Shown here: in pieces, positions 2,309 to 39,722 of the stretch
How the letters are laid out: each line of letters opens with the position of its first letter
Position numbering within the stretch: position 1 is the stretch's first letter
Source of the DNA: Nageia nagi
Taxonomy: Eukaryota > Plantae > Pinophyta
Assembly (NCBI GenBank): GCA_050084985.1
Contig: JBITNC010000001.1
Coordinates: 620,001-684,000, forward strand
DNA length: 64,000 nucleotides
Reading direction: 5' to 3'
Translations under genes and position numbers: made by a program
The notes under the pieces: model-generated
Told to the model about the DNA's origin: nothing
What the model saw: the letters and a program-made list of their open reading frames with translations, nothing else
The model's database searches: none

Positions 2309-2385
2309 TGTTGTGCCCACACAACACACCCCAAAATACAAGATTTTGGGGACCCTATTTTTGCGAAGGCAATGAGGTGCATCGC
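2309..2385 (+). mobile_element. Truncated 5' stub of the TGTTG...CAACA family (B-like)
   Basis: TGTTGTGCCCACACAACACACCCCAAAATACAAGATTTTGGGGACCCT...GAAGGCAATG matches the reverse complement of about 31625-31701. Confidence 0.65.
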
Positions 2386-6759: not shown

Positions 6760-6760
6760 G

Positions 6761-6772
6761 TGGTATCAAAGC
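6761..6772 (+). promoter_or_regulatory. Primer binding site (initiator tRNA-Met type)
   Basis: TGGTATCAAAGC (consensus TGGTATCAGAGC) immediately after the LTR. Confidence 0.85.
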
Positions 6773-6845
6773 TTGGATCTAGCCAACTTGTGTATGAAAC
6801 TGGTAGTACATCGCTATTACACCAGATCCAGTACTCGAAGAGAGA

Positions 6846-13700: not shown

Positions 13701-14804
13701 GCAAATATGTAATATTTTAAGGTTTTTTTATAGAATTAGGGTAACACTTGGAAACCCTAGAAATTCTATAAATAGACCGCATGGGGTCACTTCTATGGAG
13801 ATTCAAAGTTTGGAACTTTTCAAGGAATGAAAATTTTGAGAACAAGTTCAAGTTTTTTGTAAGAGGAGAAAAATTGTGAAAACTTTTATGTAACTCTTTT
13901 ACAAAGAAAATACAAAGTGGTTAATTCAAAGACTTGAGTTTGACACTTTTCATATTGATGTTACGGATTGATTCTTTGAGGGCACTCATAGTGGGTTTAT
14001 GTACTTTTGCTTTATTCCTTTGAAAGCTCTTGGGATTTAGAGAAGTTATCTCTGAAAAACATTAAAAAGTTCTTGAAGCCTACCTGTGTTTGTTGTTGGA
14101 TCCTTAACATGCAAGTTGATTAGGTATTCTACGTCAGTTTCTACTTTTATGACATCTTGTTAGGTCTCTCATCCAAAACTATGATCCATTCACTTTCAGA
14201 CCTTCCATTTCCATTCAATTAAATCGGTCCTATTCATAGAGAACTGACAATTGGTGTTCCTCCCCGCTCCTCTTTGAAGCATTTCGAACTGAAGTTGTTT
14301 GCTTGCAAGGTTGGATGAATTGGGTGAAAATTCCTTAACCGATCTGGAAGAGATTAACTCTTAGACACTTTCCCGTCAGTGAACCTCAACCTCATATCAG
14401 ACCAAGTATTCTTGCTTTCTCCAAGGTGTTTTCTTTCACCTCTTTATAGTATTACCTTTACGCTTTCTTTATGCTTTCATACCAAATATGATCGTTAAGT
14501 CCACACACAAAAGCTCCGAACAAACTCTATACATCAAAGAATTAAATATCGTTGGTTAACAAACTATATACCTCTCATTCCATTCCATTGAAGCTGATTC
14601 CAAAGAGGGATACCGCACTTTATTTCCATATCTATCCCTATTTAGAAAACACATCAGGCGAACAAACCTTACAATGACACGACGTTGGGGTCGTTGGCAG
14701 GGTGTTTCAACAAGAGCCTTGGAGGTACACAGTCCTTTTCAACCGAGGGAATTCGTAACGCATATCCAACTATGTTGCTTGGGGTCTCGTAAGTTCCGCC
14801 AACA
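7698..14804 (+). mobile_element. Gene-carrying TGTTG...CAACA unit, subfamily B copy 1 (5' about 690 bp deleted)
   Basis: Colinear with the reverse complement of about 24830-31010. Ends CCGCCAACA, and host gag/protease sequence resumes after 14804. Confidence 0.85.
10317..13667 (+). pseudogene. Large accessory ORF, about 1115 codons (copy B1): globular N-domain, acidic/Pro linker, coiled-coil C-terminus
   Basis: ORF pieces 10413, 10988, 11420, 12142 and 12579 join into one frame MSIDKKNKELQMEKL...ISPPGK*. Homologous to three other copies. Confidence 0.8.
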
Positions 14805-15431
14805 ATATTTAGTGTGTCCCATGCGGGAAAGAAAAGCATCCCAACACATATGATCTAGAGCCGACCATGAAGTCCCTCAAGGGAGGGTAGACATACAAAG
14901 GGTCGATCACACGGAAGTCTTTCGTCGACAAGGGCCTACCAAACCATTCCCCCCACCTCGAACGAACCAACTGGATGCAGCCCCATAGAGGAAATTGAGG
15001 ACGGCAAGTGCTTCTACTGCAAGAAGACTTGGGATCCAGGGCACTGTTGCCAAGGCAAGGGAAAAGTGCATTACATAGAGGTATTTTTGGAGGATGAGTT
15101 GAACGATTCAGATTTGGATCTTGGCATGGACACCCTAGATCAGGAGACACCATGAGCAGAGGACACCTTAGGGAGCATGATCACTTCACTTCATGGGGTG
15201 AAGAAGTACCTCACACTAAAAGTTGTGGGGCAAGTAGGTGGTCAGGATGTGATGGTCCTGATTGACCCAGGAGCATACCATAACTTCATCGATGCAAGCT
15301 TTGTAGAGAAGAAAAATCTAAAAGCCAAGGGGTTCAAAGGATTCAAAGTTTCCAATGTCAAAGAGAAACTCACGATTGTGGACCACATCCTTGAGAGATT
15401 AGGGAGTGCAGTGGCTATTTGATTTGGGTGA
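14805..15431 (+). pseudogene. gag C-terminus and aspartic protease of the 5542-23677 element
   Basis: KCFYCKKT/WDPGHCC knuckle and VMVLIDPGAYHNFID retropepsin motif. VQWLFDLG continues as DIHTNHQKLTMSFKIDGK after 21402. Confidence 0.85.
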
Positions 15432-18400
15432 TGTTGGGGGCTTTTTCTTTGCTACCCCTTGCAAGTTAACAAATGTTATTACAAGGCTTGTACAAAGACT
15501 CCGACACTTGAGTGGTAGGGCGTTTCCCTTACCCGCTATGAGGACTTTTACCTCAGGTTTGGAAATGGAGGGTGCAAGGGTTCACTCAGGTGAAAAGGTG
15601 GAGATGTTTAAAGCTGTTACCAACTCAAAATAGAATTTGTTACTCAAGGACTCAAAGGGTCCCTAATCCAAGTATAATTGTTTCTCGAAAGGAAGAAATA
15701 AAAATAGTCTGTTGTGAAAGCCACACAAAGAAAATGAAAAAGAAAAGAAAAATAAAAGGAGTGAAAAGACAGTGATATATGAGTTGGGCTCCTAGGCAAT
15801 GTTTTCACTGATTAATATGACTTTCTAAAATCGAACTTATCCAAGTTTGATATAAGTTCCACGCACCCCAATTCCAGCTCGGAAGGCAACAACACGAATG
15901 TCCTAACAAGAGGAGTTTGGTGCTAATGCAATGAAAGAAAGGTGTGTCGTAGGTATGACTTAATATTGGGGTGAAGTTCTTATGCTAAACGGCATACACA
16001 AGTCATTTCGGAACACATTAATCCTCAATGCAAACTATGAAACATCACAATGAAACACTTATTGAAATATTTCCAAAAGATATACAAGCACTCTTTTATC
16101 CACCTATTAGGTTTATAAAATGACCCAAATATTCAAGACAACATTAACATGTAATACGCATTCACATTCATAATTTCAAATGCAAACAAGCTCACTTCAA
16201 TTACTTGAAATCATATCATAATTGCGAAAAGAGAAAACTTGTAAGCTTTAGAGTATTATTTTAAGTAATCCCAATTGCAAAGAATGTCTGATCCCCCTAC
16301 AAATGAGCTTAAATAGGCTACTTCTAGTTTTTAGAGCAACCCAAAGTGTTTCCCTAACCCTAATTACAATTTCCAAGAAATGAAATATGGTCCAACAAAA
16401 ATATGCCACATGGCATTACAAGATGTCCTCCAAATTTGTGGGAGCAAATCCTCATCCATCACAAATTTGGGAATTTATTAACAAATAAATAAAGCCTCCA
16501 AAAGTAACTTATGAAATATAATAAATGCAAGACAACAAATATTGTGACTAGGCAGTTGGTGGGCCCAACACCTCTACATGCCCTTCAAAGTCATCGTCCA
16601 GAAATTTGGCCGTGAGCTTCAATCCATGTAGCATCTCTGATAGCTTCGGCCCATTCTTCACCACGCTACGCTCTACTTTGTTGACAATCCTCATCATGGC
16701 CTTCTACCACGCATATCCTTTGAGCAAATGCTCCAAGTGACTACCTATCTGGAAAGTATTAATGTCTTCGATCATGATCAGACTATGAAGGAAGTGTCTC
16801 ACTTCCGCCACTATAAGGTCTTTGTCACGGATGGCCGCATCATCGTCAAGAAACTTCACCTGGAACTCCATTTGCTCAAGACAAGTATTTGTCTTGTCAT
16901 TGAGCTTTTGAACATCCTTTTGCACCTCCTGGAATCAGGTGGTTATTTGGTTATCTACACCCAAATAGAACCAATATTCTTCGCAAAACTTCATATCTTC
17001 TGGCTCCCGATTCCATGACATTTCAAACTGCATGATCATGGGCCGTCTAGAATCCAAGATCCTGAGAAGACTGGTTCTCTCCACGATGATATCCTTGAGC
17101 TTTTGCTCCTCGAATGCTATCCTTTTTAGTGCTCCAATGAACTGATATACTACTACCAAGACCTCCTCTATATGCTTTTGTTTTACTACAATCATACCCT
17201 CCTTAAGCGGCTTGATTTTTCGGAGCTCTTCAGTGGGTACCTTAGCCGATTCTAATTCCTTGGTCAACTTCCTTTGTGTGGCTAACTCCTTCTTGAGGCC
17301 TTTGATCTCCTTATCTTTCATCATACCATCTTTTGTAATGGCCTCAACATTGGAGATGATTGCATATTTCCGACTAGCCAGACCAATCGAACCTGTGTTG
17401 ATGATCTGGTTAATCTGTCTAAGGTCTTCAGGGCATTGCGGATTTTCCTTATCAGCTATAATGGTCTTAATATGTATGGCATTATCAGCTAAGCGTACAT
17501 ATGTCTAGGTCCTCCTTGGGTGAGTGGATATTTCTCCAATATGGTTGTTCTTCTCTTCAGCCCTAAACTTTCTAGACATCCATATTAAACACATCTAAAC
17601 ACCCCTCCATATGGACACCCCACTCATTCGTGGTTGATGGCCGATAAGTCTCCACAACCACCTCTAGAATAGTAACAACATTTTTGTTCATTTTCTTCAA
17701 GGATCTCTTTGCTCATGATCACTTGAAGTTCTTGTAGCTCGTGACTGTGGGGTTCTCTTTAATAGAGCCCTCTTCTCCACTATCTCAGATACTAGCTCCT
17801 TTTCCTTCTCAGTAGATAGCTCTATCGTTGTTGTCTTATGGATTTCTGCCAATATCTCTATGAATTCATCTTGTTGTTGTGCATCGGGAATTCCCTAATC
17901 CTGGATTGCATTCTCTTCCTATTCTTATTCTGATGCTTCAAGCTCCCCTTCCTCTTGATTTTCATCAGGCTTATACAAGGGGCTAGAGGCTGATGATTTG
18001 AATGGTGGAACAACTGGTGACTTCATGATTGTCGTGGTTCTAGTTGGTCTCGGAGATGGAGAGGGATCTTTGTCTCTTTCTCACGCACCTCACCACTTTG
18101 TTTGTAACTACTCGTTCTAGCTCCCTTGCGTCATGCTCATCCATGGTGGCTTGCACTTGTTGCACAACTTGTTCGATTAGCCTTTTGCCACACATGGACT
18201 CATACTGACCAACTGGTGTCTCACCGACTGGAGGGAACTGTGTAACCCTAGAAGTAGACTCTTGAGGTTTTCTGCCCTTATGCTGTGATAGTATTTTACT
18301 GATGGTAGCTTCAACACGGTGCTGCTAATCATTTGCATCCTTGTGTACCCTTTCTCTTACCTTCCTTATTTCTATCTCATTGTTGATATTTCGGAAAGGC

Positions 18401-21397
18401 TCCTTGTCTACTAGTGACTTATGCTCATAAGGTTTCTTCCTTTCCTTCATGAAGAACGAGTGCATTCTGTGATCCGAATCATAATGGTTGGCAATAAGCA
18501 TTTTCTTAAAATTGAATTTTGCCAACTCTTCCTTCATGGTGTCTACATCCGTCCAGAACTTACACTGGTACTCTTCTACAACAATCGGCAAGTTGGAAGT
18601 GGCTGATTTCTTCTGCCATACCTGGTCATGTAGAAAGGCCAATTGCCTCATCATCTCCATTAACAACATCCTATTACTCACAAACCTAGCCAATTGATAG
18701 GGTTGAACGGTTGATTCATGTATACGAATATAAGAGAAGTGTTGATGATGGAGGAAGAAGTCTCCATGCTTCTTCAAAGCATCTTGGGTTGCATTTGAAA
18801 TCCGAGCAACCGTGATCTCTCCCTTGAGCTCTTTATATATCTCATACTCCCATCCATCGTTCTTCATCATGAAACTGTCCCATCTTCTCTCTAATTTCCA
18901 TTTGGGGTAGCATTTCCAAATGGAGTAAGTTCCTCTTTCTATCCATGTCATCTCCCCCTGCGTTGTAGCTCTATACTTGCTGTGAAGTAACATGTATACC
19001 AGGCATGAATTGAGATAGAATTTGCAAGTGGTACCTATGGATGATAATTGGTCTGCTATGGTATCACTCACCACCTTGCTCCACTTGATCCTTTTGCCCC
19101 TAGCAATTTTCAGAATGAACCCAAAGAATTCCTTCCTGAACTTTGAAGCATCTTCTTTCCCAAGAACTCTAGATAGCAAGAGTATCATCAGCTCACTTGC
19201 GGGATAGAAATTGGAATGAGGAGCATTGATGAGTGCATTTCCCTTCAATCTATGATGCTCCTCCAACATTTAGCTCTTGATAGAAACGGCTGCCCTGGGG
19301 TCCCCTGGTAACAACCTAATGATCTAGCCTCGTTATACTCAACTTCTCATTCAAAGGTCCACTAAAATGCTGCTTTGATGGCGTCCAGGCTGAAGTCCAT
19401 TATGATGTCTCCTTTAATACCTCAAAGGACACTCTCCCCTTTCTGCCAGTGGTGACCGACCTCCATGCACAATTCAAGAAATGGGGCTATGAATGGGACT
19501 AATGTGCAAGTGGAGAGTCCAGAGAAGAAGACAATATCCTGCTTCAAGTCAATGATAGGAAGACCATGAGTGCTCTCCCTCATCTACGTAGGGTCAATGT
19601 TTTGCCAATTTGTATCTCTAATAGTTGCAAAACCATTTCTCGAGAATTTATTCCCTTGGGGAAGGGCTTGTTGTCTCTCATGAATGGAGATGACACAATC
19701 CTATTTTAACCGCTCGAGATCCCTAATGAGGTCCGAAGCAAAATTGCCCTTAGAAGAAGTCATGGTGTTCTCACTTGCAACGTGGCTCCTCAAGAATGTT
19801 GCGTGGGTTTTCAAGTGAAGATGACACCCACGTTGGAGGGTCTTGCCTTCCAAGTGCTTGCGCAAGCCCTAGGATGGATGAATGATGATGTTTGAGCACA
19901 AAAATCTGCAATTTGCTGCTATCCTGGTGCAAGCGTAGAAGAGGAGTAAGTTTTTGAGTTTGAGAAAATGAGGTCCCTAAGCTTGTATTTATAGCCCACT
20001 TGGCTTCTAGCTTGCCCTAGTTGGCTAGGGTTACTGACAGAACTCATCATAGCCTTCCACTTGGCTGACCTAACTCATGCAAAGCCGCCTGTGCCCAAAC
20101 ATTTGGGTTTTAATGCTCAACCTAGATTGGTGCATGGAAAAAAAAGACAAAAAAGTGACTTTTTGAACCATGCGCCAGCCCTAGAAGTATGTATGCTTCC
20201 AAAGTTGGGTCTCCTGCCTTCATGCTTGCTTGCCTTTATCACCTAACTCACCCAAAAACCTGATTTTTCCTGATTTTGGGTCTTCTGGTTAGTTGGACTT
20301 ATCAATTTTGATGTTTCATTTCAATCTGGGCAACCTGTGGGCTTGGCGCATGCTTCCAAAAGTCAAGTTTGTGACCTTTTGAGGCATACGCCAGCCTTGC
20401 CTGTCCATCCAACCTGGTTGCATGGTTCAAAAAGACAAGATTTTATCTTTTTGAAGCATGCATCAGCCTCCACTTGGCCTATTTTCCGGAATTTGATCTT
20501 CAAGTGCTCATGCCTTAGCCAAATTTTTGTGTTTCTCGAATCCTGGAGGCTTCCTGGGCTTGGCGCATATCTCAAAAAGTCAAGAATTTGTCTTTTGAGA
20601 CCATGCGCAAGCCCCTCTGGGTATGCTTGAGCTGGTCTTTAGTTTCCTGGGTTCGGAACTTGTCAAATTTTCCACTTTTCTCGAACTGGCAACCCTTCTA
20701 AGCTTCGCGCATGGTTCAAAAAAACAAGATTTTGTTTTTTTTGAAGCATGCGCCAACCTCCTAGGTGACTCATGTTCATTTTCTAACCTCCAAACTTGCT
20801 CAACTTGCCCTCCTGACCAAGTCGCATGGTTCAAAAAGACAAGATTTTGTCTTTTGAAAGCATGGGCCAACCTTGTAGTGCCTTTGACTTGGGTTTTTCG
20901 TGCTTACTTTTGCTCCATTCTGCTGCCTATGTTTGGCGCATGCCAAGGAAAGACAAGATTTTGTCTCCTAGAGGCATGCACTAGGCTTGCAAATGCCCAA
21001 ATTCATTTCTTGAGCCTTCCCTCCTGTATGGACGACCCTAGGCCCAATCGCATGATTCAAAAAGACAAGATTTTGTCTTTTGAAAGCATGCACCAGCCCT
21101 TGGAGATGCCCAATTTGCTTTGATCGGAGTCTGACTTTTCCTAGACTCCCTAGTTCACCTAAGATCGACTTTTACCCTTCCCAAACTTAGCCATTTTTAG
21201 AGTTTTTGAAATTGCTATCTTGACATGACTAACCCTAAATGAAGGAAGAGGCTTGGCTTATAAGGAGTTGTCCATGAATATGGATCTTTGAGATGCAACT
21301 TTCGTAAGACTGATGACAAAAAAATGAAGTATATACATTGGTGCATTGAGGGTCCCCAAAATCGTAGGATTTTGGGGGATGTGTTTTAGTCACAACA
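15432..21397 (-). mobile_element. Gene-carrying TGTTG...CAACA unit, subfamily A copy 2 (complete, 5966 bp)
   Basis: TGTTG/CAACA termini, TSD GGTGA/CGTGA (4/5). The host reading frame is restored on removal. No internal LTR pair, gag or pol. Confidence 0.9.
16548..19763 (-). pseudogene. Large accessory ORF, about 1070 codons (copy A2)
   Basis: MTSSKGNF...IRDTNWQNIDP...PFIAPFLELCMEV...(ORF 18325..19269: FRKEFFGFI..I..GK.IKWSKVVSD..ADQL...FYLNSCLVYMLLH)...coiled coil...LGPPTA*. Confidence 0.8.
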
Positions 21398-22420
21398 CGT
21401 GACATTCACACCAATCACCAGAAACTCACCATGAGTTTCAAGATCGATGGGAAGACCCATACACTGCAAGGAATTCGAGATAATTGTCCACAAGTGGACA
21501 GTACGCGTCTAGAGGTTATTGAGTGATGCCAAAAGGAGGAAGCAAAAGATAGGGCCACGTTGGATGAGGAGTCTCGACAGGAGAAGAGGAGAATTGGGGA
21601 GCTCCCATACCCCACGTTGCATCCCAAGGAGCTTGGAGGGATCACATCGGGCTTAGAAGGCCTCCCACACTACACGTTAGGCCTTAGGGATGGCTTCCAC
21701 CTCACGTTGCACACCAAAGTGGTTTATCACATCACATTGGGCATTAGGGAGACTTGCCACCAGATGTTGAGTTAGGACATCCAGTTCCCCACGTTGGATT
21801 AAGGAGAGCTACTACACCTCACGTGGGAGGATGAGGAATATTTGCACATGATGAGGAGCATGAAGGGGTTTGAGCACCCCACGTTTGGCTTGGAGGGTCT
21901 TGAGCATATAATGGCTGGGATAAGGGGGTGTTGGCTCCCACGTTGGACTTGGCAAGGTCTGTGTACATGATGTTGAACCAAATAGCAGTTGGGCACCCCA
22001 CATTGGAATATGGAGGAGTTTTCGACCTCACATGGAGTGATGGGGGAGCTCGGGTCCCCACATTAAGCTTCGGGGAGGTTTGGCCTCATCTATGGAGCAA
22101 GAGCTCCATTTGTTTAAACTCACCCATGATTTACTTGAGGTTTTTACAGGTACACCCTTACGGAGGTACACATACATCCTCATGTGTGCTAAGGAAGATA
22201 GTGGAACAGCTAATGGGAAGTGACAGTTACAGCAAAATAGAGTTTTTGCATGCTACATTGATGCATGGCTATGAAACTTCAGCAATCTGCATCACACTGT
22301 TATCATGGGTAGAAGGTATTGAAGTTGCATTCCACCATGGCAGACCATGGCTATTAGGTTTGAAGGATGCTCGGAAAACAATATGCTGCAGTCTCCATTA
22401 TTATTTGAGGGCAAGCAATT

Positions 22421-22435
22421 GGAGAGGGAAGGCCT
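22421..22435 (+). promoter_or_regulatory. Polypurine tract
   Basis: GGAGAGGGAAGG just before the 3' LTR start TGTGAC. Confidence 0.75.
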
Positions 22436-23677
22436 TGTGACATCCCCCTTGCATTATTTTCATTAATTATGGAATCCAACAGATTCCCCTTAGTAATATA
22501 TTTTATTATTGCATTGTACTTTCAAGTTGTAGCTTGGGATAGAAGACTTCATAGGTCAATGGACCCCATTGTGAGCCCCAAATGGGACGTCTCCCTCCCA
22601 AGCATAGATTAGGTGTTTTATTATACTTGGAGATTCCGATCTTGATTGTGGGAATCTCAAGGTCTGTTTTGCACTTAGATGGATGGATGAGCACTTGTAT
22701 ACATGCGCCAACCTTGGGGAGACTCCTAGACCCCCACGTTGCCCCATTATGACACCTAGATCCCATGCATGGCTCCTAGAGCCACGTTGGGCATGCATGG
22801 CACTCCTAGATCCCCACATTGGCATTTATGGAACTCTAGGCCCCCATGTTGGCATGCTTGACCCCTAGGCACCCATGTTGGGCATTCTGGGTCCCCAAGA
22901 GGCTAATGTTGGGATTAAGGAGTGAGGTGATGACTCCTAGGTAAGATCCAAACAGAGTTGAGCGTATAAAGAGGCATTGGAGCCTCATTGTTGGATATAC
23001 CTAATTATACTATTATCTCTTGATACCATCCTATGGACACAAGTCTTAGCAGCGCTAAGCAATCCCCTAGGTGCTGCATCTAGGAGGGCTATCAAGATGA
23101 GGGATCTTGTAGCCTACGGCATTGGTGTAGCACCCTTGCCCATCTGGTGGTATTCCGAGGTTGCGCTTCTACCTTCAGTGGTTTCTGAGATCAAAGGAGG
23201 GGTCCTTCAATGGAGAGGATTCGGCTTTCAAGGGAGCAATATTGTCCTATGGTTCCACCATCCGTCTAGCAGTGAGAGACATTCAGTTGTGCCCTAATTG
23301 GCTCCTTGGAGGCCAACGTCCAGCTTTGGGAGCTTGGTATTGTATCACTTGTCATTGCTTATCATATATACATCCGTTGGGCATTTGAATCTCATGTTGT
23401 ATTGTTCTTATGTCCATTATTGCAATGTTGTGGGGTATTTGTTCATTTATGCATGTATGAGCCAGACATTGGCATTGTGAGGGTTTGTACATTGATATTT
23501 GTTTGTCTTGGCTAGATGTTGGCATCTTTGTGTTGTGTACACTTGTAGTGGATGCCTTAGCTCAGACGTTGGCAATATTGTGTTGTGAATGCTTAATGTT
23601 GATGCCCTAGACCAGATGTTAGGGTTTTTTAATCGAATTTGCTGATTTGCACTTGAGTTACATTTGGGATCCTTAAA
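22436..23677 (+). repeat. 3' LTR of the 5542-23677 element
   Basis: Direct repeat of 5542-6759. The terminal CA is mutated to AA and is followed by TSD AAAAT. Confidence 0.92.
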
Positions 23678-24104
23678 AAAATACTTCAGACTATGGTGAT
23701 TTGTGCATACGATGAAATGTTGACCAATGAGGTAGGGTCTCCATTTTTGCACCGCATGAATTATTGCCACATCTCCTTTTCATAGATAGATCTAGCCAAA
23801 TTTCAACTTGATAATGCCTTGCTAGTGAAAAGCCAAGGCTCTTCCCTCTTGCATCAAAACTGCACCCAATCCTACTCCAAAGGCATCACTCTCAATGAAA
23901 TCCTCGCAATCCCTTGAGTGATTTTGGAATAGGCCAATCTTGCATGTTTGCAATTTTATGTGGATTTACCTTGACTCCATCCTCAGAAATGACATGCCCC
24001 AAGTATTCAATCTCATGCAACCCAAACGAACACTTGGATTTATTTGCATATAATTGATGCTCTTGAAGTAATTGCAAAGTTTGATCTAAGTGTGCCAAAT
24101 GATC
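23678..24104 (-). pseudogene. Ty3/gypsy RT C-terminus and RNase H (outer gypsy, piece 2, internally deleted)
   Basis: LYANKSKCSFG..EIEYLGHVIS..GV.V.P.KI; ESDAFGVGLGAVL; AIIHAVQKWRPYLIG.HF.V.T.H.SLKY. Confidence 0.88.
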
Positions 24105-27100
24105 TGTTGGGATGGAAACCTTTCCTACGTACCTATGATCACCTTCACATGATCAGGAAGGGGAAAGCACCCAACATTTAGGTGAAATAGCATAACTTAC
24201 CTCCTCTTGAAAGGATAGAAACCCCAAGGTTTGTTCATGTTCCCATTGAAGAAGCACAATTTTATATATGATTATGGGAATCAACTTAACTGGTTTGTAT
24301 GGAGGTAGAGTCTGTTAACTCACTTTTTTTTATAGGGATAGTGTTTTTATGATGATTGAAAATTGCTCTGGTTTTGCAAAAAATGAATGCAAGAAAGATA
24401 AAAAAAAGCAAATAAAAAAAACAAAGAAAATTGAGAATGATCCAATACCGGTTAGACCACAAGGCGACCGTCACAACAAAGCATTGTCTAAAATGAGACG
24501 TTTTCTAATCAATTAGGAAGTTCTCTTTCATTCAATCTAGTTCAAAGTGAATGACTATTGTCCAATCAGCTTTGAATTTAGAGCAAGAGGCAACACCGAT
24601 TGTCGGTACTCTACAAACGGGACCGATGCAATTGAAGAAACTTAACATGAAATGCGCACTTTGGAACCAAGTTTGAACGAAAGCTTCAAATAGGATATAG
24701 AAAAGAAACAACTTCAGAATACATTTTGTTCAAAAGTGCAAGAGGCAAAAGGTGGCAAACTATGAAAGAGAGCCACAAAAGAGAATCCATTCACCACTCC
24801 ACGTATGACAAAGTCTCTTGAGAAAATAAGTCACCACTTTGTATTAGCTTGTAAAAGATTTACAAAAAAGTTTCCACAATTTTCTTCTTTTACAAAAAAT
24901 TTGAACTTTTTCTTGAAATTTTTATTCTTGGAAAAGTTCAAACTGTCATTTTACATAAAAGTGACCCTATAGGGTCTATTTATAGAATTTCTAAGGTTCC
25001 CAAGTGTTGCCCTAATTCTATAAAAAAAATATTAAAAAATTACATATTTGCCTCTTATGACTAAGTCAGTTGACTTTTGGTGCTCTACTTCCAAGCTAAC
25101 TAATCATGAGAGCAAGGTTAGTTGAGTTTTGGTGCTCAACTTTCTCGGCTGATTCATTTACAAAATTTTCAAAAATTTTCAAAGATGACAAAAATTACGG
25201 TGGCTGATTTGCAATTTGCATATGATACGATGGTTGCCTCAAAGTTCGCACCCATGAAGGTTTCTCTGTTTTTGACTTCGGTGTTGATAATTTCCATAAT
25301 CCATTCATTTGCCAATAGATACGCAGTGATGGTATTTGAAGTCTTCTTCATCTCGCTGCACCATATTGCCATATCACTGCCATATTTGATTTGCTTGCTA
25401 GATTTAGAAACATTAATGTCTTCAGTTTCGAGGTAAGTGGTAATCATTAACTGGACCTCATTTATCACCATGGTGTAGTTCCTACTGCATCCATCTTCCT
25501 CAATCAATTTCAGATCAAATTGGTACTCTGCTAGCTATTTCTTTATGTCCTTGAAATTTGTCTAGATTTGGATGAAATCTTGATAGTTTGAAATACTGTA
25601 GAACAACCAATCATACTGGTAAAAGTATTGATGACAATATTCCAGTAGTATTGGCATGCTAGCAATCTTCCTTATCAGATCATACATCACTTGATAACTA
25701 TTGCCCCACCTGGCAATCAATTCATGGATCCTGCCTTGCACAACAAATGATCCACTCTCTTTGATAAAGAAATTGGTTATTTCTAGGAATAACTCTTGGA
25801 TAGCTTCTTTAGTTTTCTTTATCCACTCCTCTTTAACCACTTGAATCCCAGTATTCAACGAAATCTGTTTCCTAATGTCTTCAACTATCATGTCAGCAGC
25901 TTGGATGTCTACGATCAACTTCTTGTGTTCGACCAATTCTCTTTTCAGATGCCTGAGCTCTACTTTCTGTTATGTATTCTCCTCTGTTCGTGCTGCAACA
26001 TTGGTTACTATTGCATGTTGCCTGCCCAAAGTTCCGATTGCCTTACATGGCTCTTCTCATGTTTCCACCACTATTGCAAAGTCCCCAACAACATTTCTTT
26101 TTCTCCCTAGAACAACAGTGTCGATGACGATGGACTTGTCCATCGAGACGTAAGTGGCTATATGCTCAAGTTCATTCTCTGAATCCTAATCGGTTTCAAA
26201 GTCGGCACAGGCTTCAGATGGATGATATGCCCTTAAATTTTTTAAGAGTGTCGCCATGTCAAAGTTGTAACTTGGTTCAAGACCAGCAACTGTAGTCACT
26301 TGTCTCTTAGGGTTCCCTTGGTGTTCATCCTCTCTCCTCTTCTTCCTCTGGTCTTCATTTTCACCTTCATCCTCTTCATTTCCTCCATCCCTTGCTGATG
26401 AGGAATCTATTCCCTTGGAAGCTGAAGTCCTTCTTGGAGCAAGTGGTGGAGGTTTTCTCTGAGGTGGAGTTGTCTTTCTTGATTATTGAGGTGTAGAAGC
26501 CCGTGTAGAGGTGGGTTTTGTTGCTTGCACAGGTTCTTCCATAGTAGAAGGATCTATGGCCGGTATCTCTTCGACTGATGAATCTGATTCATTTGATTCA
26601 TCGCCTAAGTTATAAGGTATTTCAAGTATCTGGCCATCTTCTAAGGGCTCTCTCAAGAGGTCTCCTTCATCAATCTCATATTCATCCTCGCTGTCACTGG
26701 AAGGAGGAGCAGGAGAACTAGGGCAAGAATGATATAATTGTCCATCTCGGGATGGACCTCTGGAAGGAACTTCCACCAGCTTCTTCAAGCGTATGTACAG
26801 GTGTGAAGTGCTACTAGTCTCTTTAGTGCTCTTTATCTCTTGTGATAATCCTTGTATGGTCTGATCAATAGTTTGCCATGGTTGAACAATGAGTGTTGCA
26901 TATTGACCAAATAACCCCTATGTCAATCTCACGGAGGGTGAAATTGGTGGTGGTTCATATGGAATCAGAAGATTCTTCTTAAGAATTATCGAAGGATGTA
27001 TCCTAGCTACTGCATTCTCCTCTTGCAAACCTCTCGTTCTTCTTCTTCTTGGTTATGATCTACATGAGCTTCTCTTCTACTACCAAGTCCTTGTTTATCT

Positions 27101-30100
27101 TGTTAATTTGCTCTGTATCATTTACATTTATATACCTTTCAAGCTTCCCTAGGGATTTGTGGGTATAATCGATTTGCTAGGTTTTCTTGAAAAATGTGTT
27201 GATTACACACCTCGGGGTCATAGTACTCTACTGCCTATTCTACTATGAAGTTGTAGTATGCCAACTCCATCTTCATTGTTTTGACTTGATGCCAGGACGT
27301 GCATTCGTACTCTCCTATGTGGATGAGTAATTTGCAAGTGGTGGCACCTTTCTTACACCAAACTTTCTCGTGTAGATATGACAAGTGTCTGCAAAGTTCC
27401 ATCATGATGAACCAGTTACTTGCGTAACGAGGAAGTCTATAAGGTGGTTCAATTGACCCGTAGACCCTGATAAATGTGGCATCTGTCTCTTCAAAATAAA
27501 AATCAGCATGTCCTCGAAGAGCTTGTATTGTTGTCTTTGATATTCTGGTCATATTGACCATCCCCTTTATCTCTTCATATATCCGACATTCGAATCCATC
27601 ATTCATCATTTTGAATTCGTCCCACCAGTTTTCCAACAGGAATCTAGGGTAATTCTGCCATACTGGCATCTTTGGGTCAAATAGGTACTTGGTATCTGCA
27701 ATGGTGGGTCTTCTGTTCTTACCATGTAAGAGCAAGAATACCAAGTAAGAGCTCATGACAAATCTTTTTTTTTCTACAAGTCTAGACAGTTGTTGGGTCA
27801 TGCAATCGCTGATCACCTTACTCCATCTGATACCTTTGCCTCTGCTAATCAGATGTATGAAACCCACAAACTCCTTTCTGAATTGTTGGTCATTCTCTTG
27901 CCCTATAATTCTGCACAACATGTTGATAATGTTAGAGACTATAGGATAGAAGTCTATCCTCCTTGGTTGGCTTAAGGCCTTTGCCTTGTAGTCTTTGCAC
28001 TTGTCAACCAACCAATCTCTTATTACGTTCCCCAACTTTGTCAGGCTGTTAAAGAATTTGACGAAGTCCATCATACTGAATATGATTCTCTCATTGCTCC
28101 AAACAAAAGCGATCTCTATTCCTTCCATAGTGAAGTCTAATATTTTTGTGCCTTCAGTGTCAAGGACTCTTTCCTTCTAGTTGTAGTATCTGGCTACCTC
28201 AAGGCACAATTCTAGAAATGGAGTGGTATATGGGATCATAGAGGCCTCAACGATTCTGAACTGAGCAAGTGTGTCGTTGAGCAACCGTTCATATGGGATC
28301 TTGGCCATCTTTTCCAATGACTTGACAGGGATAGTGTGTGCCCAGTTTGTGTCTTTGATCTATCCAATACCATCTACTATCACAGGTGTAGGGAAGGCAG
28401 CCTTCCCTCTTTTCTCCAAGGTAATCTCAATAGTCTTCATAAGCCTCTCCATCTGGAGCTCCTTGTTTTTTTTAGCAATACTCATCATTTATGCCCTATG
28501 GAGCACAACAAGGTGTTAAGAGTGATGTTGGGTATCTTTAGAGTGATTTTGAAGTGAAAAAGATAGTCAATTTTTTTGCCTATTTTTGGATTTTTGAGAG
28601 GCTATGGATTTTCAAAAATTTTGAAGTTCGTCGAAAGTGGGAAACAAGTACATGGGGTGTTGGAAAATAAATCTAAGAGGCTTGTGAACAAGTCTCAGAG
28701 AAAAATATCGAAGTTTCTATGTCCGAATTAACTCGCTGTTTTTTTAGCCCATGTATTCGTTTTTTGACAGTTTTGGCAGCTTCGAAGCTAGGAAAGATGG
28801 GGGTGTAAAGTGGGTTTTCAAGCTTCTCTTGGGAGAAGTGAATGATGGAGGCTGTTCTCCTATATGAGGTCTATTACTTTTGTATTCACTTCGAAGTTCG
28901 GATCACTCAAAATTTGGGAGTTTTTGAGCCTTGAAAAAGTGTTTTTTGTGTTTTTTCATGTTTTTGAAAATGCGGGTCCCGAAATTTGGAAATTTTTTAA
29001 AAAGTGGAATTGACCTTATGGATGGATGGAGGGTGAGATTATAAGGTTCTTGAGAAAATTTGAGAAGGTTTGGGGCTGTTTTGGATCTTGTGACCAATTT
29101 CAAGTTTTTGAGCAAGTTTGTGATGTTTTGTGAGAATTTTGCTCAAAAATGGATGCATGGAGGCTCAAGGAATGTTGTGGAGCAAATGAGAGGCTTAGGG
29201 GGGTATTTATAGGGTTTTTGTGCCTTTTGCATTATCCTTGGTGGTTTTTGACCTAAAAAGTGCTCTATGGGTGCATTTTGCACATTTCTTAAGGTTTTGT
29301 GGCCTTCAAACACTCCATAGGCTTGAAATTCAGCCCCTAGCTTTTGGAGGCACTTCCTTTGGTCAAAATGGAAAAATTCAAAGTTTAAATGTGATTCAAA
29401 TCACTTCCTTCACCCATTTATGTGCCCCAAATCAGATTTTGATGAGTTTTGGGGCTTTCTCCTTGCATCTAGGCGTTAGAAATCACTTGTTTGGATTCTC
29501 CAATGCCTTGCAAACCTACGCCTGAGTTTTTGGGGCATTTCTAGTGCTTAATTTCAAAAATTTGCTGACCTAAACATGCTTAGAATGCCCTTTTCCATGC
29601 AACCATGTGAAAAAATTTGATTTTTTTGCAAAATTTTCATTCCTCATGCTAGGCACTAGTTTTCACTCCAATGGGTATAGAAAAATCAGCAAACCTACAC
29701 CTAGAATTTTGGGCCACTTCCCTTGCTCAAAATCGAAAAAATGCAAGCTTAAATGTGTTTATTTTCATGTTTTCCATGCAATTGACCCTTCAAACTTGGA
29801 TTTTGAGGAAAATTTTTGAAAACTCTTGTTCCTCGGAGCTAGATTTCACTCCATTGGATTTCTAATGGCATGAAAAACTGCGCCTGCCTTTTAGGTGTCT
29901 TAAAATTGCTCAAAATCCAATTTTTACAAGTTTAAATGTGGTCAAAATGGGGTTTGTCACCTAATGGACCCCTTGGAATCAATTTTTATTGCATTTTTCA
30001 CTTATCCCTCCAAGTTAGGCGCTAGAAATCACTCCTATGGATTTGGAAACATTAGCAAACCTGTGCCTAGCCTTTGGAGGGTCAAAACTTGCTCAATTTA

Positions 30101-31701
30101 GAAATTTTCAATACCTAAATGTGCTAGAAATCACATTTTACACCCAACGAACCCCTCAAACTTGAGTTTTGACCAAAACTTATCAAATTTCATGATTCTA
30201 TGTGCTAGATTTCATCCCATTGGATTTCCATAGCCTTAGAAACATGTGCCTAGCCTTTAGGGTGCTCAAAATCAAAAATTTTGAGACCTAAATGTGTTTG
30301 CAATCATGTTTTCCTTAGTCCCAAGCACTTAAACTTGAGTTTTGGTCAAAAAACATTCCATCTTATCATTCTAGACGCCGCTTTTCATGCCAATAGATTT
30401 GGAAACATGCGCCTAACATTTTGGGGTCTTCACTTGTTCAAAATCAAAAATTTTGAGACCTAATGTGCCTTAGAATCTTCATTTCCACTCATTTATGCGT
30501 TTAGATTTGATTTTTGATGCATTATCATTTTTTCTCCACTTTCTAGGCACCAAAATGCATCTCTATGGATTTGGGCTTGGAAAACTATGCCTACTCTTTG
30601 AGTGCCTTAGACTTGGTCAAAATTAAAAATATCAAGTCCTAACTATGATAGAATTCACCTTATCTCTCCGAATACGCTTTTAGACAAGAATTTCAATACC
30701 ATTTGTATTTATCTATGAGAAACGTGCACCATTTTTCCCTCACTTGGGTCTTGAATAGCTTGGAAAAACATGTCTGGGGCTAAGGGTACTCAAACTTGCA
30801 CTTTCGATCCATTCTAGACTCAATCTGTGCATTTCCGATCACTCCCAGCATTTTTGAGCTCAAACTCGATCAAAATGCCTTTTTCGGCACCTCCGAGCTC
30901 AAACTCTACATTTTTGATGATTTCCAAGCTCAAACGATGCAAAAATGATCATTTCCGGGCTCAAAGTATTCAATTCCGCCCATTTTCGACATCTCCAGCC
31001 CTTAGTGTGAGAAAATGACCTTTTCAGGCATTTTCGGTATTTTCAAGCATTTTTGACCATTCTGGACTCAACTCGTCACTTTTAGTCATTTCTAAGCTTT
31101 TCGGACTCAAATCGTGCAAAATTGCATTTTTTTACCATATTGGCCATTTGCAGGCTCAAAAGTGACCAAAACACGCTTTTCTACCTTGCCTTTTTCTAGC
31201 TCTTCGGGGTCAACCTTGACAAAAACGTCCATTTTTGTCATTTTCAAGGCACCTGGACTGAAAGTCTCATTTTTGTCACCTAGGTACCTTTGTGCTTAAA
31301 TTCTGCAAAAATATGCCTTTCTGTTGCGCTAAGCACCTGTGAGCTGAGTCTGCAAAAACACACCCTTTTTGTCAACTTGGTACTTTTGCACTTGAATGTT
31401 GCAAAAACGTGCCCTTTTTCGCCCTGTTGGCCATTTTGTGAAAAACTCTCTTCCTAGTCGCCATGATCCAAAACTGCATCCTGCTTGATGTTGCTTGAAA
31501 CTGGGTCATGAATGGTCGCTGGACATGTTGAATTGCCTTGGTGCCTCTGGGCTACTTGTGTGCATTGCATCATCACTTGGCCGCTCTGATTCTTCACTCT
31601 GGCCGTCGTCTAATCATCTTCAGGCAATGTCGTCCATTGCCTTCAAAAAAAGTAAGGTTCCCAAAATGCTACATCTTGGGGTGTGTTATGCGGGCACAAC
31701 A
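24105..31701 (-). mobile_element. Gene-carrying TGTTG...CAACA unit, subfamily B copy 2 (complete, 7597 bp)
   Basis: Perfect TSD TGATC (24100-24104 and 31702-31706) and TGTTG/CAACA ends. Interrupts RT at KTWEDH|LAHLDQ. Confidence 0.92.
25085..28485 (-). pseudogene. Large accessory ORF, about 1130 codons (copy B2)
   Basis: ORFs 27235..28128, 26483..26788, 25562..25936 and 25169..25507 are highly similar to the B1 pieces. Confidence 0.82.
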
Positions 31702-33905
31702 TGATCCTCCCATGTCTTGCGGTAGATCAAAATATCATCAAAGAAAACCAAAAGAAATTTACGAAGATAAGGGCGAAATACCTGATTCATCAAGCTTTGG
31801 AATGTTGAAAGGGTATTAGTGAGGCCAAATGGCATTACTAAAAATTCGTAATGACCATCATGTGTCCGAAAAGCTTTTTTTGGAATATCCTCTTCACGAA
31901 GTCGGATTTGATGATATCCCGATCGCAAATCTAGTTTCGAAAAATATGTCTCCATGTAGCTTATCTAGCAATTCATAAATTATGGGAATAAGGAATTTAT
32001 CTTTCACAGACACCTTGTTGAGAGCCCAAAAATCTATACACAACCACTAGGATCCATCCTTTTTGGACTAATATGACAGGCGAAGAGTAAGGACTAACAC
32101 TTGGCCTGATAATCCCTGCTTCCAGCATCTCCTATACTAGTTTTTCAATTTCATCTTTCTGCAAACATGCATAGCAGTAGAGCCAAATGTTGGGTGGTTG
32201 ATTGTCGGGAACTAGTTGTATAGTGTGATCTTGAAGGCGGTTGGAGGGTAACCCTTTTGGTTCTTCAAAAAATTCTCATGAAGAGCCAAAAGTTGTTGCA
32301 ACTCTGCTAATTCACCTCCCTTCTATGCAACTGGTTGTATTGCAAATAGTTGTCCTACCATTCCCTTTTGTCCTTTTCTACTCAGCTTCTCTATCCGATG
32401 AGAACTTATAATCAATGATGGACTAACACGTAGTCCAGTGAATTGATAGATATGTTCTGCATTAGTGAATTTCATCCACAGTTCAAGGAAGTCCCATAGT
32501 ATAGGTCCCAATGTTTGCAACCATTGAACTCCTATGACCACATCACACCCTCCTAATAGAAGTACATACATGTCACTCTACATGTGATAATCACCCATGT
32601 TGAGCTTAACATTGCGGCATTTCCCCTTGCAAGAAATTCTACCTCTATAAAACAATTAGTCTGTTTGGCCACACCAGGATCAATGAAATTATGCCTACTT
32701 CCTAAGTCAAGTAAAATAACGAGGGACGGCTTTTTGAAATATCCATGAACCTTCATTGTTTGAGGTGTTGTAATTCCTGCAAGAACATTGCAAGAAATTA
32801 CAGGAACTTTTTTAGTTGTTTCAGGCTCATTAGCTTCTTCCTCGACAACAGTCTCATCCTCTAAATCATCAGAAACATCCACATTAAGCAAATACAACCA
32901 CTGTGTATTACATCGATAGTCAGGTGCGTACTTTTCATCACAATTATAGCAAAGGCCCTTTTCTCTGCAATCATTCATTTCCTCTTGAGTATGTTGCTTA
33001 ATTGGAAATGAATGGGTAGGTTTAGGAGCAGCTTGAGAACCTTGAGGTTTGTTGAATGGTTGCTTCCCTTATCGGCATTAGGCATTAAATTTGTCTTCTG
33101 CCAATTTGGCCAACCTAATAGCCTGTATTATAGTGCTAGGATTAAACATTTTGACTTATACCTTGATGTCTTCCTTCAACCCACTAATGAAGCAAATCCT
33201 AAAAAAAGATTCATCTAATCCCTCTGCAATTTGCAAGCTTTTCAAATTGTGTTTGATATTCTTTCACTGTTGATTTTTGCCGAAGTTTTGTAAGAGCTCC
33301 TGTGAAATCCTCAAAATCACTTGAGCCAAACCTCACCAAAATTTTTTTGTAAAATCCTCCCAACAAAGAGTCCCATTAGTTTTTTCAAACCACTGGTAGC
33401 ATTGAATGGCCTCATGCTCCAAATGGAAAGAAGCAATATTGACCTTCTAAACCTCAAGAATATGATTCAGTGTAAAGTATTGTTCTGCTCTATAAATCCA
33501 ACTAGTTGGATCCCCTCCATCAAACTTGGGAAATCCAACTTAGTTGTCCTCGGAAGGATGAAGGCTTGGACACCTCCCATATGCCACCTGTTGTGCCTAC
33601 AATTGAGTATTATGCCTTGAAGATTGTTGAAAACTTGTACCTAGTGTAGTTTGGGACAAGGCTAGTTGTTGCATAGATGATTTTTGCAGAGCTATAAGAG
33701 ATGTTTTCTATATTTGCAATAGATTCGAATTCATAGAATTGTATTTAATGCCCAATCCAATAAGCTTCTCTGTCAATTCAGTGAATTTGCCATTTATCTT
33801 TTGAAAAGCAGATTTTAGGTCAACTCCACTAAGGTGAGCTTGAATCAGTTTAACTTCATTATCTATTTTTTCTAGAATGGGGTCTTGAGATCTTCTTCCC
33901 TCCAT
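31702..33905 (-). pseudogene. Ty3/gypsy gag-protease-RT (outer gypsy, piece 1; chromovirus/Reina-like)
   Basis: REKGLCYNCDEKYAP; ILLDLGSRHNFID; [14 protein letters not shown]; [14 protein letters not shown]; [10 protein letters not shown]. Confidence 0.9.
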
Positions 33906-34272: not shown

Positions 34273-34716
34273 TGCGACCTTGCAATCTACTAAAAAGGGG
34301 TTTTAGAAACCTAGCAGAACTAAAAAGGGGTTTTACCTCAAATTCCATAAGAAATATTGAAATACGAAATAAACACAGACTCGTAATGCATCAAGTAAAA
34401 CAGTTGGAACAATATACTCAGGTTAACAACCAGATAATAGAACATAATAAATTTAGTGATAGCAATAACGAATCGCAAGCCTCTTCAAGGAGGCTTCCTC
34501 CTTACAACTCAAAAGATAATTGATTTTCCAAGATGCTCTCTTTACCCCTCTTACAAATATTTATGGTCCTTCTACCCTAATTGGAGGTTTACATTCAAAA
34601 TGACGATTCACCTTACAAAATATGATGGTTCACATTACAAGCCGATGCAAGCAAATAATTAAATTAACTAAAACATAAATAAGCCTAAGTAAATTTTAGG
34701 ATATGGGATCCTAACA
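34273..34716 (-). repeat. Probable 5' LTR of the outer gypsy
   Basis: The minus strand starts TGTTAGGATCCC at the junction with copia coding sequence, upstream of gag. No intact PBS was found, so the inner boundary is approximate. Confidence 0.5.
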
Positions 34717-37317
34717 AACAATCTAGTGAAAATAAGTTCAAAGACAGTTGTAAGAGACATTCTGAGCATAGGCAAGCCATCAAATAGCATCTGTTCTTCA
34801 TGTCAAAAAGGTAAGCTCACCATAACTTCATTCAAAGCAAAAAAGTATTATTCTAGCAAACCTTTGGAAATTGTACATACAGATTTATGTGGGCCCATGA
34901 GAACACAAAGCATAAACAGGATTAAATACTTCATGGTGTGTATAGATGACTATTCCAAAATGACATGGGTGATGTTTCTAGAACACAAATTGGAAGCTCT
35001 TGAAATGTTCAAGATCTTTAGAAGACAAGCAAAGAATCAAATAGAAAAAAGGATCAAATGCTTAAGATCGAATAGAGGTTGAGAATTCATTTCAAATGAA
35101 TTTAAAAAGTATTATCAAAAACATGGCATCAGGAGACAACTTTCAGCAGCTAGGACACCACAAGAAAATGGTATGGTAGAAAGAACATGATAGTACAAAA
35201 AATTGCATGAATTATATTGACTGAGTGCAAGATAGCAAACAAATTTTGGAAAGAGGCAATCCACATCGCGGTATACATTCAAAACATGAGCATGTTGATG
35301 CCTCATGAAAGCAAGACCCCATATGAGTAGTGGTTCGGAAAAAGAGCAACAACGAGACACTTTAAAGTTTTTGGCAACAAGTGCTACATCAAAAGGATTG
35401 AAGACAATATTGGAAAGTCTAAAGCTAGAGCAGATAAAGGCATCTTTCTTCGTTAGTCAAGAAAAGCAAGACTTACAAATGTTACAATAAGAGATAAACA
35501 AAAATAGTGGAAAGTACGAATGTCAGTTGATAAAAAGAGAGAACCAGCAAGCAGCAATGAGGAGAACTTTTCCATTTACAAGGACGAAATAGAAGGAGAA
35601 AAGGAAGAGGACAGATGAAGAAGCGAAAAGTGAGTCAGAAAATGAGAAACCAAATGAAGATAAAGAAAAGAACAAGAAATCCAAATCCACAAGTTGGCAA
35701 AAAAATCATCCTAAAGAACAAATAATTAAAGATCCCAAAGTTGGTATTTAAATAAGAAGAAAAATTGTAAGAGCTTTCTCTCTTTTATCCAACATAGAAA
35801 CTAAAAATGTTGATGAGGCAAGTCGAGATGAAGGTTTGATAGAAGCAATGAATGAAGAATTAGATCAAATTGAGAAAAACAAGACTTGGGAGTTAGTACT
35901 AAGACCCGCAAACAAGAATGTGATCGGTACCAAATGGGTCTTTCGAAACAAATTGAACGAAGATGGACAGGTAATCAAGAACAAAGCAAGATTGGTATGC
36001 AAAAGGTATGCGCAAGTTGAAGTTATTGATTTCGATGAAACCTTTGCTCTTGTGGCTAGATTAGAGGCAGTTAGAATGTTTCTTGCTTTGGCAGTATACA
36101 AAAACTTCAAAGTTTATCAACTGGACATGAAGTCAACATTCTTGGATGGAAAACTTGAGAAAGAAGTTTAATTTGAGCAACCAAATGGTTTTCAGTTGGG
36201 ATAGGATCCAAAGTTGGTGTGCAAATTGAAGAAAGCGCTTTACGGTCTAAAGTAAGCACCCCAAGCATTGTACTCCAAGCTTGATGCATATTTTCATTAG
36301 CATGGCTTCAGAAAAGGTATGGTGGATAGTTATCTTCACATAAATCTGAAAATGGAAATCAAATCATTTTTATTGTTTATGTGGATGATATTATTTTCAG
36401 AGGATGCAAAGATGAATTATGTAAAGACTTTGCAAACAAGATATAGAAAGAATTTGAAATGTCCATGATAGGGGAACTTTCATATTTTCTTGGTTTGCAA
36501 GTTAGTTGAAAAATGGCATTTTTATTTCGCAAATCAAGTATGTAAAAGAAATGTTGAAAAAGTTTACTATGGCGGATTGCAAGCCAGTAAGCACTTCTAT
36601 GACAATATGTTGCAAGTTGAGTAAAGATGACAAATTCCCATCGATTGATCAAACTATGTATAGGTCAATGATTGGAAGCTTACTGTACTCGACAGCTAAT
36701 AGACCAAACATATTGTAGGTAGTGTTCATGGTTGCACGATTTCAGGCTAGTCCCATTGAGACTCATTTGACAGTAGTGAAGAGAATTTTTCGGTACCTCT
36801 AAGGCATAGTGGATTATGGTTTGTTGTATCCAAAGGGGAAGGACTTCACACTTATTGCTTATTCAAATGTAGATTGGGCAGGTTGTGTTGATGGCAGGAA
36901 GAGCACCAGTGAAGATGCATTTTACTTGGGTGACAATCTTGTGGCATAGCACAATAAGAAGCAGGAATTAGTTGTACACATGCAGAATACATAGCAACGT
37001 CATCATGTTGTACATATGTACTATGGATGAAACAAATGATGAAGCACCTTGGTATTCATATCAACGAGCCCATTTCAGTGTTATGTGATAACACAAATGC
37101 AATCAAAATCTCAAAGAACCTGGTTATACATTCTTGCACAAAGCATATTGCTATTCGATACCATTTCTTGAGAGAGCAAGTTGCTAAAAGAGAGGTTAAG
37201 TTGGATTTTGTTCCAACAATAGAGCCAGTAGAAGATATATTCACCAAACCATTTTCCAAGGAAGTATTTGAATACCTTCGCAAGAAATTGGGAGTGGTCA
37301 TACTTCCCAAGCATTGA
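34717..37317 (+). pseudogene. Ty1/copia pol (GAG-pre-integrase, integrase, RT, RNase H), degenerate
   Basis: CSSCQKGK; PLEIVHTDLCGPM; IDDYSKMTWV; IKCLRSNRG; VIGTKWVFRNK; KARLV; YVDDIIF; RSMIGSLLY; KHIAIRYHFLRE. Confidence 0.93.
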
Positions 37318-37530
37318 CTAGCTCTCAGGACCACATTCTCAGGGGGAGCATTTTTGTCTTTGATTATCATTTTGTTCTTATTTATGATTTTTGCTAAGTG
37401 TACTAATTTTTACCATAGAATGTTGTGCATGGATTCAGGGCGAGTTTACTGTGGCCCTTTGGTCTTGTTATCAAAGGGGGAAAAGAGTTACAGGAAATTG
37501 TGTATTGCCAACAATTCCAAAGGGAGGGAT

Positions 37531-39722
37531 TGTTGACCAAGGTGCAACAACGATGTTATCATTTTTGTCAACACACCATTATGGATGTATTCAATGCTTG
37601 CATGGGAATTTTCTGTGTATATATGTTGCAGTGTTCAAAGCTGAAAAAGTTGCAAAATTGTCAAAAGTTGTAAAAGTTGTCAAAAAGTTGCAAATGAAGT
37701 AAAAATTGCACATTGGTGCTTATTTGGAGATGTTCGGTTCTTGTGTGGATGTATTTGGTGTTCAAAGAAGTTATTGTAGGTTTTTTGTGCGAATTTGCAA
37801 AATTTGCCAAAAGTTGCAAAAATCGTCAAAGGTACCAAAATCGTCAAGTCGCCAAAACCCCAAAGGACTGTGTTGGAAAGCCCAAAAAAATGTGTGTAGG
37901 CTTGTTGGATGATAATAAGTGTGTTTGCAGCGTTGGAACGACCGGTTGTCTTATCGGTGCATGATTAGACAATTTAGTGTTTTATGGGACAATTGTAAAA
38001 TTAGTGTCAGAGGGCATTTTACAGGTAAAATATCAAGCAATTTGGAAGGAGTTAGGCTTTGAAATTTATACAGGTCATAGATTGAATTACGGTAAACATA
38101 CAGTTCAAATTTCAGCAATGAAGACCCAAGACAGAAACGACGAGAGTTGTAAAAAGCTAATTTGCCACTTTTTCTAGTTTTGGACAATTTTATGGGACAA
38201 CGGTAAAATGCTAAAATCTATGTTTGGTTGTGAGAAATATTGAAGTTTGATGATTGATTCACCTTTATCTCATCAAAATGAACAACTTTTCTTTTTGCAC
38301 CACCTCGATCCGAGATCACGAAGTATGAGTTTGAGTAACTTGCACCATTCTTTGTCCGCCAAGTGTTTAACAAGTTGTTTCTTTGATGTTTTTCAAGTGT
38401 TCGATCATTTTGAAGGCAAATTGCTTGATTTTATGCTTGGAAGTGTTCTAGTAGTGTTATTGGTCAGCAGTAGTGATGATTTGTTGAATTGCAATTGTGG
38501 TAGAATTGTTTGAGAAACTATGATTATTGGTGAATTGATAGTTTTGTTAAAATTCAAATATTATTAAAGATAAAATATCAATCATTTTTGGAAGGGCATA
38601 ACTTTTGATATAGGCATCCAATTGAATTGATTTTTTTCCATTCAATATCCCTTGAAAAGATCTTTCCAGCAAATATATGCATGCCTATCTTTTTAGAGAT
38701 TTGACCTTCATTCAGTGCATTTTGTTTAGGGAACGTTCTGAAGGCTGGTTAGCATAGGGGGCATTTGGGATGCTAGTTTGCATTTTTTTTTATACATGTC
38801 AATTTCTTACGATATAAAAGAAAAAGAAAAAGCCAAGGGTTTGAGTGATTGTTGGATGAAATATGTACACAAGTTTTGAAAGAAAATAATGGAAGAACAG
38901 AGTTTTCCTTACGAAGGAGCTGTTACAAAGAGAACCCTAAGATTTGGGTGGTAAAAGACATCATTATTCAAAGTGAATGTAGTGTTTTTGATTGACAGAC
39001 ATTCTAGCAATGTGAAGACAAGGTTAGAGATTCTTGGAGGCATAACGAACATTTGTTTTACACTGTTGTGGACAAGTGTGAAATGCAGGTGTGCAGTATG
39101 GTTGTGATTGAGAGAGTAAAAAAGCAAGGTAGTTTTTGGGTGTCGATTTGTTTTGAATGGAATAGTTACAGGGCATACGTTCTTGAAGAATTCAAGGCAT
39201 AACAATAATCATATTATTATTGCATTCGGACAACTATGAGGAGCTGTTGTGTAGGGCTAGAAAAGGGAATTCATTGGCAGTAATTCAAGGTGTTGTGTTG
39301 TGTGAACAGTAGTGTGGTTGCAACCGTCAGGATGAACAGAAGAAGAGTTTGTGTTAAACCACTCATAGTCTTTGGAATAGAGAAATTTTCTATTACTGCT
39401 TGGTGAGTTCGTAGAGTGGATGCTTGGCGACAAGGGTCGGTGCTCCTTGCAGTCAATGTTGCAAAAGTTGGGGTTAGTCAGTGCTACTCCCCACAGTGGG
39501 TGCTACAAAAACATTGTAAGACCAATTTATTTTGTGACTAAATTTAGATGGAAGTCCGAGCAGTCCTTTGGCAGAGTGGTTTTTCCCACATTTGTTTTCC
39601 ACTATAAATCTCGTGTTGTGCAATGCTTGCTTGTGTGTTTGCTTATTCTTTTTTATTTTGCATGTGTTAAATTTTTAAGTTACGCATTCACCCCCCCTCT
39701 CAGTGTCACATGTAGTTCAACA
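37531..39722 (+). repeat. 3' LTR of the copia element (SIRE-like, about 2.2 kb)
   Basis: TGTTG...TTCAACA after several PPT-like runs (AGGGGGAG, AAAGGGGGAAAAGAG, AAAGGGAGGGA). U5 motif ATTCACCCCCCCTCT is typical of Sireviruses. Confidence 0.78.

Follow-up and report, generated by a model that had tools for sequence, protein, structure and literature searches.

The internal regions of the plant retrotransposons Tat, Ogre, Retand and Athila contain extra open reading frames (ORFs) with PMD or Transposase_28 domains, as well as tandem repeats. Long terminal repeats (LTRs) of up to 4.4 kb have been reported for Del/Tekay (PMC4029996), of up to about 5 kb for non-chromoviruses (PMC6317226), and of more than 3.2 kb for Retrosat2, which also has an ORF0 upstream of gag-pol (PMC3485330). 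The stretch analysed here, 64,000 nucleotides of the conifer Nageia nagi (contig JBITNC010000001.1, positions 620,001 to 684,000; hereafter the window, whose own numbering is used for all coordinates), contains a family of TG...CA units that recalls these elements. As in the OTA group of Ty3/gypsy elements (TatII/TatIII, Ogre, Retand, Athila), a large PMD/Transposase_32-like accessory ORF lies near family-specific tandem repeats (PMC6317226, PMC4408406, PMC11963269, PMC7264820); the 5-bp target-site duplication (TSD) is also shared, and very long LTRs are found in that group. However, the extra ORFs of the OTA group are internal, between the LTRs, whereas here the ORF, the repeats and the promoter are inside one TSD-bounded TG...CA unit. 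The solo LTRs of long-LTR plant elements are similar in their TG...CA termini, 5-bp TSD, a TATA box about 1 kb before the 3' end, and the lack of a primer-binding site (PBS), polypurine tract (PPT), gag and pol, but the units described here reach 6.0–7.6 kb and include a protein gene of about 3.3 kb with a second promoter. A fast-evolving transposon gene beside family-specific tandem repeats is likewise known from VANC of VANDAL, a Mutator-like element (MULE), and from the MAIN/MAIL1 PMD genes (PMC5735166; PMC13547354; bioRxiv 2024.09.27.615353). A literature search turned up no case of a gene of this kind within a plant LTR, and the architecture is apparently undescribed so far.

We interpret the units as sense-oriented giant solo LTRs derived from a gymnosperm LTR retrotransposon of very large size, a reading to which we assign a probability of roughly 0.7. 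Its support comes from integrase-type ends with a TSD, an LTR-like promoter tail, and no means of self-replication. The window contains the following copies, which together occupy 22.9 kb within its first 31.7 kb:

24105–31701, minus strand: unit A, a complete copy of 7597 bp that interrupts the reverse transcriptase (RT) of a gypsy-type host, with an empty site and end-to-end cover in four runs.
24100–24104, second copy 31702–31706, no strand: TSD of A, TGATC.
15432–21397, minus strand: unit C, a complete copy (5966 bp) of the second subfamily, flanked by TSD GGTGA (15427–15431) / CGTGA (21398–21402).
7709–14846, plus strand: unit B, A subfamily, 5'-deleted, TATA1 at 9580, ORF from 10317 to about 13560, TATA2 at 13766.
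1–2087, plus strand: unit D, truncated at the window edge so that only the 3' part of a C-subfamily copy is present, with the C-domain from 2 to about 970 and a TATA-like box at 1183.
2309–2375, plus strand: stub, 5' terminal motif only, with about 67 bp in common with A.

A, C and their relatives are a real, repeated mobile element. Both complete units start with TGTTG and end with CAACA, so that the TG...CA termini form short inverted ends, and the TSD matches at 5/5 positions for A and 4/5 for C (expected by chance with probabilities of about 0.001 and 0.02). When each flank of A is translated alone, the two stay in one frame and encode an RT (Pfam RVT_1 on either side); the flanks of C, treated in the same way, stay in the frame of a gag-protease-like stretch. 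In four public runs, the empty site (24098 joined to 31701) was seen in 7, 2, 4 and 6 contigs, respectively, and A is one coherent repeat because contigs of these runs cover all 30/30 bins of A and its flanks. The two complete units with their ends and TSDs, the restoration of the host frame upon excision and the repeated nature of the element, all of which had been proposed in an earlier sequence-only reading of this DNA, are thus borne out.

The remaining copies are less regular. B had been placed at 7698–14804; it is indeed a partial copy, but it starts near 7709, where the host gag frame runs into it, without its 5' ~0.7 kb, and its family end (CCCAACA) is at 14846. Two end-like motifs occur within 14760–14846: besides the family end motif there is an inner hairpin, ending GCCAACA at 14804. 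The stub at 2309 does match the 5' motif; beyond the ~67 bp in common with A, nothing clear was detected (z 1.5–2.8). D's 3' end and the 5' motif of the stub, in the same orientation, are separated by 221 bp (2088–2308); in this spacer neither a PBS nor a PPT was found, and it has no match in Pfam and no other copy within the window. The copies, previously taken as one family, are related and fall into two distant subfamilies: A and B are 80.5% identical in nucleotides over 6.2 kb, C and D 65.7% over 1.2 kb, and A and C show 40% amino acid identity in the N-domain. Another A-subfamily copy (L005, 2582–4241; the same locus as L004) has two internal deletions and keeps the 5' end and TATA1; an inverted piece of the ORF follows, and its insertion site is the LTR of another element.

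In the orientation of the ORF, the units are arranged as 5' motif, tandem arrays, TATA1, ORF, second TATA-like box and, at the end, a purine-rich motif whose last letters are CCCAACA. The parts identified in A and C are:

31659–31701, minus strand: terminal motif at the 5' end of A, with two short hairpins.
29336–30984, minus strand: tandem arrays of A, degenerate (units of ~183 bp; ~31-bp units nearer the 5' end).
29203–29212, minus strand: TATA1 of A, upstream of the ORF.
25170–28485 (3' end approximate), minus strand: broken ~1100-codon ORF of A, with a folded N-domain, an acidic/proline-rich linker and a C-domain.
24976–24985, minus strand: TATA2 of A, lying 881 nt ahead of the terminal CA, with poly(A)-signal-like words after it.
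24105–24176, minus strand: 3' terminal hairpin of A, closing CCCAACA.
20125–21098, minus strand: palindromic ~56-bp units of C, 8 copies, unlike the A/B arrays.
19985–19994 and 16307–16316, minus strand: TATA1 and the TATA2-like box of C.
16540–19763, minus strand: broken ORF of C, ends approximate.

The layout of TATA box, ORF and a second box in the tail, noticed earlier, holds: all four 3' ends show a TATA-like box 881–1081 nt ahead of the CA end, and poly(A)-like words come after it. The arrays are subfamily-specific: A/B have units of 183 and 31 bp, C has palindromic ones of ~56 bp, and those of L002 are 49 bp long. The end motif folds into a terminal hairpin in A and D; the 5' motif, of about 45 nt, has 93% of its cells paired among six sequences, with one pair changed on both sides, a pattern that is no more than suggestive of its two hairpins.

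Neither A nor C has terminal direct repeats. In A, the comparison of the first with the last 1.5 kb scores 30 against 30.5 for shuffled sequence; in C the corresponding values are 42 and 27.6, due to one match of ~50 bp (a true LTR pair scores 1913). A scan of the window for PBS motifs gave just three hits (6761, 59390 and 63428), each of which belongs to another element; no gag or pol is present in units A–D, no long terminal inverted repeat (TIR) was seen, the inverted ends being limited to 5 bp, and the ORF parts scanned matched no transposase family. The absence of internal LTRs, PBS, gag and pol claimed before is upheld, and neither A nor C encloses short terminal direct repeats with a PBS and PPT inside. 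The lack of a direct repeat common to both ends of a unit rules out an ordinary non-autonomous LTR element. A large retrotransposon derivative (LARD) or terminal-repeat retrotransposon in miniature (TRIM) was rejected for lack of paired terminal direct repeats with a PBS and PPT inside.

The accessory ORF was said to encode a protein of ~1100 residues. This length is inferred from the span in A (28485 to ~25170). The gene is intact in no copy of the window: open stretches reach at most 313 and 314 amino acids, and relative to P0003 there are two frame changes in A and four in B. The ORF is under purifying selection between copies; this, the broken state of every copy and a weak VANC/PMD likeness had escaped the sequence-only reading. 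A hypothetical protein from Taxus chinensis is a homologue, with 30% identity over part of the domain. No Pfam match above the cut-off was obtained to PMD, DUF1985 (VANC) or Transposase_28/32; the best structural match of the N-domain is to VANC proteins and MAIN/MAIL1 PMD proteins, which the predicted protein weakly resembles. Its product is predicted to be a VANC/PMD-like DNA-binding regulator that resembles a transposon anti-silencing factor. A large family of distant relatives (P0077, P0094–P0209), with 20–28% identity, lengths of up to ~840 amino acids and coiled-coil-like tails, occurs on long metagenome contigs and matched no Pfam family among those scanned.

The choice posed earlier between a giant solo LTR and a unit mobilised in trans leans towards the former as the likelier, with the latter kept as a rival, because of the anatomy (the second box 881–1081 nt before CA in 4/4 3' ends) and because LTR-type replication needs terminal repeats. 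Solo LTRs are frequent in cupressophytes, and the limits set on LTR length in surveys (6000 and 2000 bp) also count for this interpretation. TATA2 and the last ~0.9–1.1 kb would represent the LTR promoter, R and U5, and everything upstream a U3 of 5–6.7 kb, which would hold the arrays and a self-promoted accessory gene. Retroviral ORFs in U3 exist, such as sag of mouse mammary tumour virus, also a gene within an LTR, but retroviral ORFs are far shorter and unrelated in sequence, and the likeness is an analogy only. In elements of the Tat/Athila group, a 3' extra ORF and repeats occur in the region from pol to the 3' LTR; the gene may have entered U3 when plus-strand priming shifted upstream of such an ORF and its repeats. 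Recombination between two very long LTRs would then have deleted gag-pol, so that a single copy remained between the TSDs. Most probably the protein would bind the arrays of its own element and oppose host silencing, in the manner of VANC in VANDAL transposons, and each solo LTR would hold protein, promoter and targets together until decay.

Several observations weigh against giant solo LTRs or in favour of a rival. The two copies with both ends visible are both single and TSD-bounded, and C is single though younger than its host, which still has both LTRs. No PBS follows the four 3' ends in the window and no PPT abuts the six 5' ends, so that none of 10 termini shows a junction, nor do the listed contigs; the flanks at A's 3' end are of low agreement, with no PBS-like consensus among the 18 contigs listed. 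Hairpins, including the paired 5' motif, occur at both ends. These points would suit an element without LTRs that is mobilised as a whole, with an integrase, and perhaps an RT, supplied in trans and acting on its TG...CA ends and terminal hairpins. Such a unit of 6–7.6 kb would spread without ever flanking gag-pol, its VANC-like gene keeping its own arrays unsilenced, and would constitute a new kind of plant mobile element; we regard this as unlikely. It offers no terminal repeats for strand transfer and inverted ends of only 5 bp, no transposase or integrase was seen, the TATA2-R-U5-like tail is a property of LTRs, and we know of no mechanism for such units. The terminus tests are weak: at three solo LTRs per intact element about one terminus in five shows a junction, so that a blank in 10 has a probability of ~0.1 and is not rare at 3–5 solo per intact. 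Contig graphs break at high-copy junctions, and the contig check may be blind to PBS or PPT junctions; moreover, self-priming lineages without a tRNA PBS, TAR and Tcn1, have been described (PMC6317226). Two contigs from different runs (X2 record 10 and X3 record 18) each extend ~665 bp past the 3' end at the same offset, with a depth of 7–12, and so share a junction that is perhaps multi-copy; the 30 letters shown for X3 are unlike a tRNA PBS, and the junction may lead into an internal region or stem from a nested insertion that was copied.

Slightly less probable still is the reverse orientation of a giant solo LTR, in which the ORF would be antisense, in the way of the PMD ORF of gymnosperm TatIII or the TRP28 ORF of Retand, and the hairpin motif would be the U5 end. 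The gymnosperm TatIII elements do have an antisense 3' extra ORF with a PMD (PMC4408406), the regions between pol and the 3' LTR of Retand contain antisense ORFs and tandem repeats, and the motif end is the most conserved terminus. However, in A and B the two TATA boxes, like the poly(A)-like words, are on the ORF strand, and no PBS-like TGG was noted beside the motif end in six flanks; in D the TATA-like box reads as TATA in either direction. Least probable, and already largely excluded by the terminal comparison, is a LARD-like element with decayed LTRs or a Ginger/MULE DNA transposon with a PMD-like gene: MULEs do carry PMD/VANC-type genes and PtPiedmont is a 7.3-kb pine family without known internal domains, but the two ends of each unit have nothing in common, with A and B still aligning at 80%, inverted ends do not extend past 5 bp, a transposase is lacking, the TSDs of MULEs measure 9–11 bp, and PtPiedmont has LTRs of ~1 kb.

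If the units are true LTRs, they are longer than the plant LTRs of the surveys compared. The parent, which would exceed 20 kb, would be at or past survey size limits, so that a sizeable fraction of gymnosperm repeats may be unclassified, and solo-to-intact ratios may be misjudged. Recombination to a solo LTR usually removes genes; here a complete cassette of promoter, gene and target would stay. A VANC-like fold near subfamily-specific repeats, as predicted, would also bear on the role of the extra ORFs of plant retrotransposons.

The window as a whole consists of plant retrotransposons nested in one another. The element into which B and C are inserted, their host, does not belong to the family:

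5542–23677, plus strand: gypsy-type element with paired LTRs, PBS, PPT and TSD AAAAT/AAAAT.

Its two LTRs differ at 117/1216 sites (9.6%); the place expected for RT-integrase (~21550–22415) contains non-coding repeat-like DNA, from which the host may be non-autonomous. Nearby, 3496–4118 and 4444–5056 form a 623-bp inverted duplication (89%), which adjoins a gypsy RNaseH-integrase fragment (~5110–5540, minus strand) and whose spacer matches 49030–49252. A decayed copia pol at 34700–39722 is followed by a purine tract and an LTR of ~2.2 kb, and a decayed AT-rich coding-like stretch (~55600–56620) resembles by eye the end of the RT of a long interspersed nuclear element. Finally, ~58796–64000 contains a long LTR with tandem repeats, which we take to be Ogre/Tat-like, followed by two PBS-like motifs (63428 and ~63459); it sits in a copia element, and nested inside it is a 2.6-kb element with LTRs of ~130 bp (about 59260–61871).
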